From the IMG/VR virus record IMGVR_UViG_2597490253_000006: DNA of 5,464 nucleotides; one strand, given 5' to 3'. The DNA comes from a virus. Its lineage: Duplodnaviria; Heunggongvirae; Uroviricota; Caudoviricetes. The translations under genes were made by a program, and so were the position numbers. Positions 1 to 5,464 of the stretch are shown piece after piece. Position 1 is the stretch's first letter; each line of letters begins with the position of its first letter. Below the pieces are notes generated by a model that made no database searches, was not told the DNA's origin, and worked only from the letters and a program-made list of their open reading frames with translations.

Positions 1-1344
1 ACTGAACAGCTCGCCATAGGTCGCCAGTGCAATAGTGGCCTGTTTATCTCCGGTGGTGACGTATTTATATTCCGCCCCTTCACGCACCTTACGCAGAGCA
101 CTGAAGCCCCCCATACCCACACGATGGGCAATTTTAAAATCAGACAACTGACCTTTCCGCGTCCACTGTTCATAGGTTTCAGGGGCATCTTCCCAGCCCT
201 GCAGAATGGCTTTGTTCGCAACATCCAGCAGAATATTACCGAAGTCAGACGTACTGTGTGTGAACGCCGCACCGACCATCTGCATCGGGTTATAACTGGA
301 AACACCAATACCCCGTTCAGTCAGTGACATACGGGCATATTCACGCAGAGTCATCCCGTTGTAGACATTATCACGTTCGGTTTTTTCAAATCCGGCACGC
401 GCCATCAGCGCCTGGCGGATCCCGTCCCCCACAAAATTACCGTTACCGGCATAAATATGAGCCGGGGTATTTTTATTGGATGGCGTGGACTCGCGCCCCA
501 TCTCGTTCAACAGCTTTTCGCGGGCCTGCTCCAGCGAACATTCAGGATCGGCAAGGCACTGAGCCTGCAGCGTCTGATAACGCCCGCCAAACATGGCAAA
601 CAGATCATTAATACCGTTTACACGCGCTTTTTGCTCTGCCAGTACCTGCGCACGGATACTGTTTTCATCCAGCACGGGTGCTGCTGCCTGCACTGGCGTC
701 CGGGAGGCTGCAGGTTCATTATCCTGTACGCGTGGAGCACTGTTACGTGGCGGAGTAATCATGTTTCGAATGGATTCCGGCATCTTTTTAAATTCCTCTG
801 TACGTTTTGACTGAATACATGCCATTGCCTTAACGGCTGGCGTCACCTGATCAGCAAATCCCTGTGCCAGACATTCGGCACCGGACATCCAGGTCTCATC
901 CGCCAGCATGGCAGCAATTTCATCGGTGGTTTTCCCGGTTTTCTGTGCATAAGCGGGTAACAGAACCGCCTCAACTTTATCGAGCAGGTCGGCATAGGTG
1001 CGCATGTCCTCCGCATCACCGCCCGTAAAGCCAAATGGTTTATGAATCATCATGAAGGTGTTTTCCGGCATAATGACCGGGTTTCCCACCATCGCAATGA
1101 CCGACGCCATTGACGCCGCCACACCGTCGACATAAACGGTAATGGACGCACCATGTGTTTTCAGTGCATTAAAAATGGCGATGCCTTCAAAGACATCGCC
1201 ACCCGGTGAATTGATATGGAGATTAATGTGGGTGATATCGCCCAGTGCATTCAGATCACTGATAAACTGCTTCGCCGTAACACCCCAGAAACCAATCTCG
1301 TCATAAATATAAATATCCGCATCACTCTGGTGACCAGCCTGCAT
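1..1344 (-). CDS. Prohead (head maturation) protease, ClpP/S14-like N-terminal domain with a long C-terminal extension (scaffold- or capsid-like); 3' end truncated by the window edge. 448 codons are open to position 1.
   Basis: Hand translation of the minus strand from ATG at 1344..1342 gives MQAGHQSDADIYIYDEIGFWGVTAKQFISDLNALGDITHINLHINSPGGDVFEGIAIFNALKTHGASITVYVDGVAASMASVIAMVGNPVIMPENTFMMIHKPFGF... with no stop through position 1. The GVAASMAS motif matches the ClpP catalytic-serine motif (GQAASMG type) and MMIHKP matches the ClpP catalytic-histidine motif (MIHQP type). It lies immediately downstream of the portal gene, as gene C does in lambda. It is absent from the ORF track only because it has no stop inside the window. 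Confidence 0.8.
   Translation of the reverse strand, partial: MQAGHQSDADIYIYDEIGFWGVTAKQFISDLNALGDITHINLHINSPGGDVFEGIAIFNALKTHGASITVYVDGVAASMASVIAMVGNPVIMPENTFMMIHKPFGFTGGDAEDMRTYADLLDKVEAVLLPAYAQKTGKTTDEIAAMLADETWMSGAECLAQGFADQVTPAVKAMACIQSKRTEEFKKMPESIRNMITPPRNSAPRVQDNEPAASRTPVQAAAPVLDENSIRAQVLAEQKARVNGINDLFAMFGGRYQTLQAQCLADPECSLEQAREKLLNEMGRESTPSNKNTPAHIYAGNGNFVGDGIRQALMARAGFEKTERDNVYNGMTLREYARMSLTERGIGVSSYNPMQMVGAAFTHSTSDFGNILLDVANKAILQGWEDAPETYEQWTRKGQLSDFKIAHRVGMGGFSALRKVREGAEYKYVTTGDKQATIALATYGELFS
1042..1113 (-). other. Catalytic Ser and His codons of the ClpP-like protease domain.
   Basis: Codon 1113..1111 is TCA (Ser78, within GVAASMAS) and codon 1044..1042 is CAT (His101, within MMIHKP), matching the ClpP Ser/His motif context. 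Confidence 0.7.
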
Positions 1345-1357
1345 CCTGAACCAGGAA

Positions 1358-2899
1358 TTATTCTTCGGACTGGTTGTTGGTGTGCTGCGGCTCCTGTCGT
1401 TTCGTTGCGGCACTGCTGCCTCCTTTATCACTGGCCGGATCGGTATCAAATACCAGATCCAGCTTGCGGTTTTCATCAATTTCGGCCTTGCGCCGACGTT
1501 TGACATCATCCGGATTACGACCACCAGCACGTACCCAGTCTGATTCTGTCGCCGCTCCACCACGAATCTGGATTTTCCAGGCCTCAGCCTCCTTAACAGG
1601 GTCAATCCACGGCATCACCGGTCCGGAATACACCGCGGTATACAGTGAAGAACGGTCAAGATCGCGGGGTAGCCTGATAACACCGGATGCCACAGCCTGT
1701 TTCAGCCAGGCACGGTACATCGGGCGGGTGACGGCACCAATAAACCAGTCCTGCAGGATCAGGTAGCCATCAGTGGATTCAACCAGCTCCTGACGCTGGG
1801 CGCTGTAAGTGCCGTTATAGTTGCGCGCTGTACTGGAAAAACTCAGACGACTGCCAGCCGCCACGGCACGCAACTGACCATTACGAAAAGTTTCAAGGTT
1901 AGGATTGGGACGATCCGACTTCACCATTCCGATTTCTTCGCCGGGTTTCAGATCGTCGTAAATAATGCCTGGCTGAATGGTAAGCTCGCGTTCATTCTCC
2001 TTGCTGTCATTACCATCCGTTTCATAGCTCTGTCCGTCGCCTTTCCGGATGTACATCCCCAGAGCAGCGGCGATCCTTGCTGCAGTCAGCTCAGAATCTT
2101 CATACTCTTTCAGGGCGCTGAGGCGGATCAGCACACCGGACAATAAAGACGTCCCGCGCATCTGGTGCAGACGGCGAACAAATTTAAGATGCAGCATTCG
2201 CTCTGCATCCACTTCTTTGGTTTCCATCTGCCGTCCGGATACAGGACGACTTTTATACACCAGATATTTTTCGGGACGCCCCCAGTCATCAACAAACACG
2301 CCCTGATTCAGCCTGTTGCTCTCATCACTGGTCATGGGAATAAAGTCCGGCTCGAGCGCCTCCAGCCAGAAATGAACACCGGCAGAAGGCGTCAGGCTGT
2401 TTATGCGCCCGGAAACCATCTGGGCAAACACCTCACCATCGCGCAGCCAGGTACGCAGCATCAGACGTTCCAGCATCGGACGGGTAAACTGCCCGGTGAC
2501 TTCCGGACTGACAGACCATTCACTCCATCGGGTACGTATCTCCGCTGCCAGGTCACGGGCAATGGCACCATTGCGTAATACCGGATGTGGCTCGACAATA
2601 ATCCCGTTTTTCCCCACCACCCGTTCTTCCAGCTTGTCAAATACACCAATGACCAGATCGTGGTTGTTATCAAGGTAACGGGCCTGCTCACGTAACGACA
2701 CGGCCCCGTACTGGCTNNNNNNNNNNAACGACACGGCCCCGTACTGGCTTAACTGGTCGGCAGTTCGGTTCTCCCGTCGGGCTTTGTGTGTCCGCGTCGT
2801 TTTTACGGCCTCATAAGCTTGGATCACCGCTCGGGAACGCAGCCTTGCCGCTTTCCATCCTGGTGAAAAAACGCCAATCACATCATCAAGAATTGCCAT
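1358..2899 (-). CDS. Phage portal protein, lambda gpB-like; contains a 10-N gap plus a 23-bp duplication in frame.
   Basis: Long minus-strand ORF (the track's 1358..2971). I place the start at ATG 2899..2897 (MAILDDVIGVF...) because it is preceded by GAGG with a 5-nt spacer and overlaps the upstream stop as TGATG. Size is about 500 aa and the position directly after the gpW-like gene matches lambda order (A-W-B-C). A C-terminal segment (LSFSSTARNYNGTYSAQRQ...) resembles the lambda gpB region as I recall it (from memory, not aligned). Confidence 0.8.
   Translation of the reverse strand: MAILDDVIGVFSPGWKAARLRSRAVIQAYEAVKTTRTHKARRENRTADQLSQYGAVSXXXXSQYGAVSLREQARYLDNNHDLVIGVFDKLEERVVGKNGIIVEPHPVLRNGAIARDLAAEIRTRWSEWSVSPEVTGQFTRPMLERLMLRTWLRDGEVFAQMVSGRINSLTPSAGVHFWLEALEPDFIPMTSDESNRLNQGVFVDDWGRPEKYLVYKSRPVSGRQMETKEVDAERMLHLKFVRRLHQMRGTSLLSGVLIRLSALKEYEDSELTAARIAAALGMYIRKGDGQSYETDGNDSKENERELTIQPGIIYDDLKPGEEIGMVKSDRPNPNLETFRNGQLRAVAAGSRLSFSSTARNYNGTYSAQRQELVESTDGYLILQDWFIGAVTRPMYRAWLKQAVASGVIRLPRDLDRSSLYTAVYSGPVMPWIDPVKEAEAWKIQIRGGAATESDWVRAGGRNPDDVKRRRKAEIDENRKLDLVFDTDPASDKGGSSAATKRQEPQHTNNQSEE
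2694..2749. repeat. Exact 23-bp direct duplication (aacgacacggccccgtactggct) on both sides of the N gap; most likely a scaffolding artefact.
   Basis: Copy 1 at 2694..2716 and copy 2 at 2727..2749 are identical. Gap plus one copy is 33 nt, so the portal frame is preserved and the translation shows SQYGAVS-XXXX-SQYGAVS. Confidence 0.9.
2717..2726. other. Assembly gap (run of 10 N) inside the portal CDS.
   Basis: Literal n characters at 2717..2726. Confidence 0.99.
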
Positions 2900-3111
2900 C
2901 AGAACCTCGCCAGCCGGTACCCGGGATGCCCCCGTCGTCGTGTAATCAGAGCCGCAAGGCGGCGCTCCCACTCCTGCCGCCCCTGCCGGATCTCAGATAA
3001 GTTTTCCATGGTCATCTGCTGACCATTAAAAGTGACGGATTTTCCGTCCAGCACTGCCATTTCAGCTTCCGTATAACGCTGAATCATGGCTTCAATATCA
3101 TTCTGATTCAT
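2899..3111 (-). CDS. Head-tail joining / head completion protein, lambda gpW-like (about 70 aa).
   Basis: Small minus-strand ORF between large terminase and portal. Its C-terminus ...ITRRRGHPGYRLARF resembles the lambda gpW C-terminus (...RRRGPAGFYV, recalled from memory). The track starts it at 3117, but the GGAGG at 3122..3118 abuts that ATG with no spacer, while the in-frame ATG at 3111..3109 sits 6 nt downstream of it and forms an ATGA overlap with the terL stop. Confidence 0.65.
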   Translation of the reverse strand: MNQNDIEAMIQRYTEAEMAVLDGKSVTFNGQQMTMENLSEIRQGRQEWERRLAALITRRRGHPGYRLARF

Positions 3112-5210
3112 AACCATCCTCCGGAAGTCAGCCAGGGGTTAACATCGTCAGTTACTGTTTTCTTCCGTTTTTGTTTTTTAACAGGCGTGGATACCGGTTC
3201 CGGTGTGGGTGACGGTTCGGTACTGTCCGGGACACACTCCAGCCAGGTTTCCCGGCTCGCCCACTCCGGTGCATCCGGCCAGCGGATCTTTTCGTATCCA
3301 TGCAGAATGACCAGAGCCTCGGCATACACCATCAGGTCAAAAGCTTCGTTGGCACCGCGACCCGGCTTACTCCATTTCCCGTCACTGCTCCGCTCTTCAT
3401 ACGTCAGTTCGTCGTAAAACCAGCTCCCCAGCCAGTCAGGGAAATGCACATAGCCGGGACCTGGCGAGTCACGCCATAACGCGTTATTCACCCGGTCTTT
3501 CAGGGCATCCGTCTGAAGAAGCCAGAGCGGTACATCACCTGCGGCCTGCGCCCGTCGGCCCGTTCGTCCGGTGTTATCAGGGAATGTACGGGTGATCAGT
3601 TTTGCGCGCCGGATGCTGTCGCCCTTAAACAGGTAAATACGTTTACCAAGGCCATCACGACGGCAACGACGCCAGAATTTATAGGCATTATCAGTGACCC
3701 CGTCTTCACCGCCGGAGTCCACCGCCATTGCCATCAGTCGCATTTGTTGAGAAGGATCGGAGGCCAGCGGCCAGCTTTTATGAAAAACATCCGTCAGCAG
3801 GACATCCCAGTCTTCCGGATAGCTGGCCGGATCAATTCGCTGGCTCTCCCCGTCGCTGTCACCGCGCAATGACTGCGTGATGTTGTAACGATCAATAATC
3901 CAGCGTTCGCCACGGCTGCCATAGCCCGTTACCTGAACCACAAAACGGCGATGAAGTCCCGCCTGCACATCCACTGTCGCCACAAGGAAATTAACGCCAT
4001 CCGGAACACTGCGGGAAGGAACTGGCTCTGCCCGCTGCTCAAGCAATTCACTTTTTCGTTGCTCCATGCTGGCGCGGGGAAGATAAGGTAATCCCCAGTC
4101 GGTATTGATAACCGTCTTGAGTGTCTCTTCACTTCCGGTTGTCTCGTATTCCTGTTCTGCAGTAAGCAGTTTGTAAACGAGTTGCGAGAGTGTCTGATAA
4201 GCAGCTGCCGGCCCCTCCATCCAGAATGACGCAATACGTGAACGCCGGGGATCACCATAACGACTGCCATCTGCATTGATGGATTCACCATCCCGTAACC
4301 AGACCCCACGTCCGTTCAGCTCGCGTTTTTGTTCAGGCAAAATCCGTCCTGAACAGGAAGGACACTGAATATAAGCCGCCTCACTTGCCAGCACAGGATC
4401 GGCAATATCACGGAAACCAGCAACCACATCGCCGCAGGGCTGAAAATACTCACCACAGTGTGGACAGGGCCAGTACCAGCGACGGCGATCGCCACGGTTA
4501 TAGAGCGACAGGATCCCCGTGGTTGGTGGAGCCTCATGCGGTGAAGTCCGTCGCCATTTCACATCCTTCACATCCCTGCCGGGGGAACTCTCCACCAGCG
4601 TCATACCACTGGACATAAATGTGGTGGTACGTTTTGAGGCAAGAGAGAAGGCATCCCCCTCACCATCAATATCTTCCGGAAAACGGTCATAATCCGTCAG
4701 CGCCACGCATTTATAATCTGATGAAGACATGATATTGACTGACGGCCAGCCGATTTTCAGGTAGTTGCCAGCAAGGAATGTTCTGTCATAAACGTTGTTG
4801 TCATTTTTGTTCGGACTCAGGCGACTGACCACTTCCGGGCTGACGCGAAACGTTCTGGCGAGTCGTTTTTTGGAGTGTTCGCGGGCTTTTTCCTCCGTCA
4901 TCTGAATGATCAGCATATCAGCAGGATCGCAAATCACGTTGTAAATCACCCAGCCGTCAATCAGGCCGATAGTCTTGCCGGTTCGTGCCGGGCCAACAAA
5001 TATCACTGCGTCGTATTCACGCGAGGCCAGGCAGTTCATAGGCTCAATAACATACGGTGCCACCAGCGGATCCCACGGGACTGAGTTCCCTGCCCCCATG
5101 GGCACCCGCATATACTGAGCAACGGCATCAGCAACCCGCATTCGTCTCGGTGCGCGAAGGATATAACCTGAATCGGTTCGTGCTGCCTTTGCGGTTTCCT
5201 GATTCAGCAT
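3108..5210 (-). CDS. terL: Terminase large subunit, lambda GpA family (700 aa).
   Basis: 700-aa minus-strand ORF. Walker A motif GPARTGKT at aa 73-80 (nt 4971..4994, verified by reverse-complementing). Cys-pairs WPCPHCGEYF and IQCPSCSG correspond to the ACPHCGEE region of lambda gpA. The segment NFLVATVDVQAGLHRRFVVQVTGYG resembles the lambda gpA segment AYLTAGIDSQLDRYEMRVWGWG (recalled from memory). Start ATG 5210..5208 is preceded by AGGAGGAG. Confidence 0.9.
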   Translation of the reverse strand: MLNQETAKAARTDSGYILRAPRRMRVADAVAQYMRVPMGAGNSVPWDPLVAPYVIEPMNCLASREYDAVIFVGPARTGKTIGLIDGWVIYNVICDPADMLIIQMTEEKAREHSKKRLARTFRVSPEVVSRLSPNKNDNNVYDRTFLAGNYLKIGWPSVNIMSSSDYKCVALTDYDRFPEDIDGEGDAFSLASKRTTTFMSSGMTLVESSPGRDVKDVKWRRTSPHEAPPTTGILSLYNRGDRRRWYWPCPHCGEYFQPCGDVVAGFRDIADPVLASEAAYIQCPSCSGRILPEQKRELNGRGVWLRDGESINADGSRYGDPRRSRIASFWMEGPAAAYQTLSQLVYKLLTAEQEYETTGSEETLKTVINTDWGLPYLPRASMEQRKSELLEQRAEPVPSRSVPDGVNFLVATVDVQAGLHRRFVVQVTGYGSRGERWIIDRYNITQSLRGDSDGESQRIDPASYPEDWDVLLTDVFHKSWPLASDPSQQMRLMAMAVDSGGEDGVTDNAYKFWRRCRRDGLGKRIYLFKGDSIRRAKLITRTFPDNTGRTGRRAQAAGDVPLWLLQTDALKDRVNNALWRDSPGPGYVHFPDWLGSWFYDELTYEERSSDGKWSKPGRGANEAFDLMVYAEALVILHGYEKIRWPDAPEWASRETWLECVPDSTEPSPTPEPVSTPVKKQKRKKTVTDDVNPWLTSGGWL
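3118..3122 (-). promoter_or_regulatory. Shine-Dalgarno sequence (GGAGG) for the gpW-like gene, inside the terL 3' end.
   Basis: Minus-strand sequence reads CCGGAGGATGGTTATGA; GGAGG is 6 nt upstream of the ATG at 3111. Confidence 0.5.
4353..4466 (-). other. Cys4 cluster (CPHC ... CPSC) in the large terminase, a putative metal-binding motif.
   Basis: Codons verified by reverse-complementing: 4455..4466 gives C-P-H-C and 4353..4364 gives C-P-S-C, at aa 249-252 and 283-286. Confidence 0.6.
4971..4994 (-). other. Walker A (P-loop) ATPase motif GPARTGKT of the large terminase.
   Basis: Reverse complement of 4971..4994 is GGCCCGGCACGAACCGGCAAGACT, which translates to G P A R T G K T. Confidence 0.85.
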
Positions 5211-5464
5211 TACTCCTCCTGCTGTAATTCCTCCTCATCATCCGCACCTGCTTCGGTCACCCGCAGGGCTATCTGATCGCGCAGATCATCAATAATGGAC
5301 TGAACACGGCTCACAGCGGCAGGCTGCAGGCCGCAGTCACGTTCCAGAATATCCGGTAATGTCTCCAGCACCTGCACGACCGCTTTTGCCCAGATGGCAA
5401 ACTCCCGTCTGACATCACTGGCCGGAATGAGTTGTGCCGTTTCCTGTTCGAACTTAAGACGCTC
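5210..5464 (-). CDS. terS: Putative terminase small subunit, C-terminal part only (5' end lies beyond the right edge).
   Basis: Hand translation of the minus strand from 5464 is open for 84 codons (ERLKFEQETAQLIPASDVRREFAIWAKAVVQVLETLPDILERDCGLQPAAVSRVQSIIDDLRDQIALRVTEAGADDEEELQQEE) and ends in TAA at 5212..5210, overlapping the terL ATG as TAATG. The call rests on position immediately upstream of terL, as in lambda Nu1-A; I saw no diagnostic motif in the fragment. Confidence 0.5.
   Translation of the reverse strand, partial: ERLKFEQETAQLIPASDVRREFAIWAKAVVQVLETLPDILERDCGLQPAAVSRVQSIIDDLRDQIALRVTEAGADDEEELQQEE
5213..5220 (-). promoter_or_regulatory. Shine-Dalgarno sequence (AGGAGGAG) for terL, embedded in the 3' end of the upstream gene.
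   Basis: Minus-strand sequence reads AGGAGGAGTAATG, with AGGAGG 4 nt upstream of the terL ATG. Confidence 0.6.

Follow-up and report, generated by a model that had tools for sequence, protein, structure and literature searches.

Phages mEp460, cdtI, Ayreon and Tritos represent the lambdoid type of Escherichia coli phages in which DUF1441, the gpA-type terminase, a gpW-like adaptor, the portal and a ClpP-protease/capsid fusion follow one another. The window analysed here, i.e., the whole stretch of 5,464 nucleotides, shows the same gene order, and the portal region of these phages and of matching prophages is 98–100% identical to it at the nucleotide level over an 801-nt segment. Judged from its sequence, the stretch carries the packaging/head module of this phage group and of E. 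coli prophages that are very common. A further described situation, of relevance for one position within this module, is the placement of gaps between contigs which in fact overlap; PMC5368935, at least in its account of SOAPdenovo2 and ALLPATHS-LG scaffolds, reports this behavior for scaffolders. Such negative-gap joins feature an N run of conventional minimum length between identical short sequences, and the removal of one copy together with the Ns yields exact collinearity with finished genomes; both properties are found in the window as well. Here, we conclude that the 10-N gap and the two 23-mer copies located in the portal gene are almost certainly an assembly artefact of an E. coli lambdoid prophage portal and not a biological repeat.

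The window contains a single N run of 10 N, and the 23-mer AACGACACGGCCCCGTACTGGCT is present exactly twice, each copy directly adjoining this run (Table 1). Both copies are identical in 23 of 23 positions, meaning that the left piece ends in the sequence with which the right piece begins, with the N run in between and no readable base separating them. Since the outer bases beside the pair are T (2693) and T (2750), the visible repeat amounts to exactly 23 nt. All k-mers repeated in the window at k ≥ 14 originate from this pair, while others appear only at k = 12; considering that only ~2e-7 exact 23-nt pairs would be expected in 5.4 kb (calculated by us as (5464^2/2)/4^23), the pair lies far beyond chance. 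The added length of 23 + 10 = 33 nt corresponds to 11 codons, and the open reading frame on the minus strand reads through the junction (...DQLSQYGAVSXXXXSQYGAVSLREQ...). As 33 is a multiple of three, the frame is not disrupted and the portal seems 11 codons too long; this preservation of the frame is a one-in-three coincidence. The initial annotation had described a 10-N gap with identical 23-bp copies at its two sides as well as 33 inserted nucleotides, which keep the frame and translate as SQYGAVS-XXXX-SQYGAVS. Coordinates and description were reproduced exactly by the repeat count, and the minus-strand translation agrees with the latter statement.

Table 1. Features of the window, with positions counted from its first letter.
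Feature	Position	Strand	Basis or reading
ClpP-like prohead protease / major capsid fusion, 5' part	1..1413	-	PF00574 + PF25209; runs off the left end
Lambda-family portal gene	1358..2899	-	PF05136; E. coli, mEp460_ev081 and cdtI records annotate it as portal
Copy 1 of the 23-mer AACGACACGGCCCCGTACTGGCT	2694..2716		Read as last 23 nt of the left contig
10-N spacer	2717..2726		Read as artificial scaffold gap between two in fact overlapping contigs
Copy 2 of the 23-mer AACGACACGGCCCCGTACTGGCT	2727..2749		Read as first 23 nt of the right contig
gpW-like / head-tail adaptor (Ad1, DUF6148), 70 aa	2899..3111	-	Annotation of L001-L003
Terminase large subunit, gpA type, 700 aa	3108..5210	-	PF05876 + PF20454
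DUF1441 gene, 3' part, small-terminase position	5210..5464	-	PF07278; 5' end off the right end

The gene harboring the gap encodes a lambda-family portal protein and belongs to the usual module of terminase, gpW-like, portal and protease-capsid genes. Its de-duplicated product matches PF05136 (Phage_portal_2) with E = 5e-82 and 276.3 bits, compared to a cut-off of 32.9, and covers positions 3–354 of the 354 profile positions, with the domain beginning at residue 35. Consistently, the gene follows those of the large terminase and the gpW-like protein and precedes that of the protease/capsid fusion, and an identical 700-aa terminase was found upstream of a 502-aa portal in 10/10 places shown, all of them in finished or large assemblies. 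The neighboring minus-strand genes are densely packed: the terminase stop and the gpW-like start share an ATGA (3108..3111), the gpW-like stop and the portal start share a TGATG (2897..2901), and the 3' end of the portal gene overlaps the GTG start of the protease/capsid gene by 56 nt (1358..1413). Such tight overlaps among packaging and head genes are typical of translational coupling. The GTG of the fusion gene at 1413 is accompanied by a Shine-Dalgarno sequence (aaaggagg) at 1418..1425; in relatives, the fusion comprises 675 aa and is already annotated by PGAP as a fusion protein. For the 70-aa gpW-like protein, no Pfam match was obtained at E ≤ 0.001, and its name varies by record, including DUF6148, ‘Ad1 adapter’, ‘head-tail adaptor’ and ‘head-to-tail joining protein W’.

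An 801-nt query spanning the gap gave matches in 1,921 records of complete E. coli genomes and in 16 of phages, and each of the matches listed (30/30) was split into two pieces, with a record span of 768 nt, i.e., 801 minus 33. In an alignment with E. coli STEC2018-607, mEp460_ev081 and cdtI, the difference is reflected by a clean gap of 33 columns, corresponding to one 23-mer plus the Ns, and the sequence is invariant immediately on both sides of it. Placing the 116 nt to the left and the 124 nt to the right of the N run on locus L001 resulted in an overlap of exactly 23 nt, and the merged junction of 217 nt is an exact match in this locus. When a merged junction of 400 nt from L001 was used as query, 2,129 records were matched; among the matches sampled at ≥97% identity, 35/35 were found in one piece and 32/35 over the full 400 nt, with the other three falling short by 2 to 12 bases at one of the query's ends, away from the junction. 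Moreover, a 50-mer across the single-copy junction gave at least 120 matches in IMG/VR alone, and the copy number of the 23-mer was one in 136/136 fetched loci containing it. Without positions 2717..2749, the complete window amounts to 5,431 nt, which recur without a single mismatch in L130, an E. coli contig of 5.08 Mb (GCA_964019835.1).

The same picture emerged on the level of the portal protein, whose gene has 513 codons as written and, without the redundant 33 nt, specifies 502 aa. The de-duplicated form of 502 aa has an identical counterpart in the database (‘phage portal protein [Escherichia coli]’), which occurs on 512 contigs of up to 5.3 Mb, and an exact-protein lookup showed that the 513-aa form with the insert is absent from the protein collection. 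A single S(Q/L)YGAVS was present in each of the five members read from the portal's 90% cluster (5,530 members), four of which were partial (461, 490, 517 and 518 aa), the fifth comprising 526 aa from an alternative start. Compared to the portal of L001 (WP_000985957.1), the window portal shows two amino-acid differences only, with N497/N498 in place of D/D at the C-terminal end. In terms of sequence, these codons (window 1370..1375) give an end of ...HTNNQSEE in the window and of ...HTDDQSEE in L001 as well as in P0004 and P0005, two of the cluster members read. A further variant, which lies inside the 23-mer, is a Q-to-L exchange (SLYGAVS) in some E. coli portals, e.g., at residue 76 of P0005. 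Public records also differ with respect to the start of the gene. The annotated start is the ATG at 2899, giving 502 aa in RefSeq/PGAP and phage records, and several NCBI entries, such as P0005, contain a 526-aa version from the upstream GTG at 2971, the codon which was also taken by our ORF list for the window (537 aa).

We furthermore searched for the duplicated arrangement itself. The pattern of 23-mer, N{0,30} and 23-mer gave 0 matches in IMG/VR, the GTDB species genomes and the JGI metagenome contigs. A control search on L042 demonstrated that an N in the pattern also matches a literal N in stored records, and for this reason the two-copy negatives are meaningful and cover N-spaced as well as true duplicates. 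Among the 244 fetched loci (2.35 Mb), no N runs of at least 5 flanked by duplicates were detected, runs of 1–2 N being the only ones present. Altogether, the duplicated form was observed in no independent assembly or relative, considering the three collections, the protein lookup, the 136 loci and the five proteins. These data are in line with several proposals of the initial annotation: that two contig ends overlapping by 23 bp had received an N spacer instead of being merged, which is supported by the exact 5,431-nt match to L130; that the locus should not be regarded as a biological repeat, as reflected by the empty two-copy search in the three collections and the single-copy state of the relatives; and that the true portal is probably 11 codons shorter, which is borne out by the 502-aa product being an exact known E. 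coli protein. An alignment of the portal to close homologs, recommended there as a check, gave the anticipated result, since the homologs contain SQYGAVS only once and are shorter than the window portal by exactly 11 codons.

A scaffold join would account for these observations in a few steps. In the draft assembly of an E. coli lambdoid prophage of the mEp460/cdtI type, two contigs with 23 nt in common at their ends (a ‘negative gap’) would have terminated within the portal gene. The scaffolder or joining script could then have ordered and oriented them correctly, leaving the short overlap unmerged and writing 10 N between them as conventional minimum spacer, with the outcome that the 23-mer would appear twice and the portal gene would have gained 33 spurious nucleotides. 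We infer that the two sides of the gap were formerly separate contigs. As first 23 nt of the right contig, copy 2 would thus be redundant with copy 1, and the true sequence is predicted to be the window without 2717..2749 or, equivalently, without 2694..2726, comprising 5,431 nt and encoding a portal of 502 aa.

An alternative option is that the strain carries a real in-frame tandem duplication of 33 bp (11 codons) in the N-terminal region of the portal, the 10 N hiding bases that were unresolved or masked. In fact, the visible bases fit an arrangement of [23-mer + 10][23-mer + 10] if the hidden 10 nt are TAACTGGTCG or a rotation thereof, the reading frame is preserved, and assemblies with a small k can break at a short tandem duplication as such. 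The hidden 10 bases are unreadable, and the sequence alone formally allows a strain-specific, real 33-nt duplication. However, in such a duplication the N run would have to coincide with precisely those 10 nt that complete the unit and, in addition, be just as long as a conventional minimum gap. Inserted material would, moreover, be situated inside the conserved PF05136 domain, and the duplication is present in none of the relatives inspected at the junction, i.e., the listed E. coli and phage matches, the 136 loci and the five of 5,530 cluster members. Against it also stand the two-copy search, which was empty in all three collections, and the merged single-copy sequence, which is an exact match to a real genome over 5,431 nt. 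We therefore consider a genuine duplication extremely improbable; if true, the additional 11 codons (SQYGAVS plus 4 residues) would be a rare case of an insertion that a conserved portal domain tolerates.

A different doubt concerns the origin of the two pieces, as an artefactual join could at the same time be chimeric, with contigs derived from two near-identical co-resident prophages or from strains of a mixed sample, so that the merged sequence would not represent one molecule. Some features of the data are compatible with this, including the up to 5 places matching the segment in E. coli genomes and the genome with two copies identical over 6.5 kb. Likewise, the left part of the window (1..2716) is exact in four of the fetched loci (L125, L126, L130 and L132), and the right part (2727..5464) in L130 only. 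It is, however, this very locus in which the merged window forms one contiguous and exact stretch of 5,431 nt, and the combination of flanks is consequently a natural haplotype; furthermore, the sequence bears no mark of a switch at the junction. We thus regard a chimeric origin as unlikely, and a chimeric join would still be an artefact.

For a break of the assembly at this position, the simplest explanation in terms of the graph would be a de Bruijn fork at the 23-mer, caused by a co-resident relative with a variant base directly adjacent to it. This idea received no support, as 0 IMG/VR sequences with this property were found: searches for a non-T base directly on the left or on the right of the 23-mer both gave 0 IMG/VR matches. 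The nearest natural SNPs are located at window position 2752, 3 nt to the right, and at 2681, 13 nt to the left. The former is carried by L157, L199 and L231 and the latter by mEp460_ev081, none of them being directly adjacent to the 23-mer. It is plausible that the assembler's k exceeded the length of the overlap at a coverage dip, and likewise plausible that multi-copy prophage modules, if collapsed, caused trouble; sequencing-error tips or a graph branch are a possible cause. With regard to multi-copy modules, up to 5 matching places exist per E. coli genome, and L128 and L129 (GCA_964046735.1) represent two prophages in one E. coli genome which show zero differences over 6.5 kb (positions 9501–16000 of each locus, comprising the DUF1441, terminase, portal and protease-capsid modules). 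The upstream lysis and regulatory regions of these two loci are unlike, despite the 100% identity of the 6.5-kb module. Repeats such as identical prophage modules of 6.5 kb fragment short-read assemblies, and the presence of two such prophages in one genome consequently gives short-read assemblies a reason to fragment in this region.

The value of these results is one of data hygiene only. The corrected portal matches a common prophage protein of E. coli in every residue, and the feature itself is almost certainly not biological. The correction is simple and well supported: deletion of 2717..2749 is sufficient and leaves 5,431 nt with a portal of 502 aa. If left uncorrected, the locus provides a portal with 11 spurious residues, of which 4 are X, introduces a false indel or ‘repeat’ into comparative or variant analyses, and may lead to a split or mis-called gene. 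In this context, an N run between identical short sequences is a cheap signature which could aid at flagging scaffold joins and discounting them automatically.

Compared to the systems described so far, the locus shares different features with each of them. Genuine short in-frame tandem duplications, arising for instance by replication slippage in phage structural genes, likewise consist of direct repeats whose period is divisible by 3, and they leave the frame intact. These duplications are, however, readable through both copies and need no N run, whereas the window contains such a run and none of the relatives or independent assemblies examined shows the duplication. With regard to the documented negative-gap joins, the 23-nt overlap observed here could equal k or k-1 of the assembler or be shorter than k. 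Finally, the window differs from the lambdoid portals of mEp460, cdtI, Ayreon and Tritos by the 33 spurious nucleotides and, in comparison with WP_000985957.1, also by the two C-terminal substitutions.
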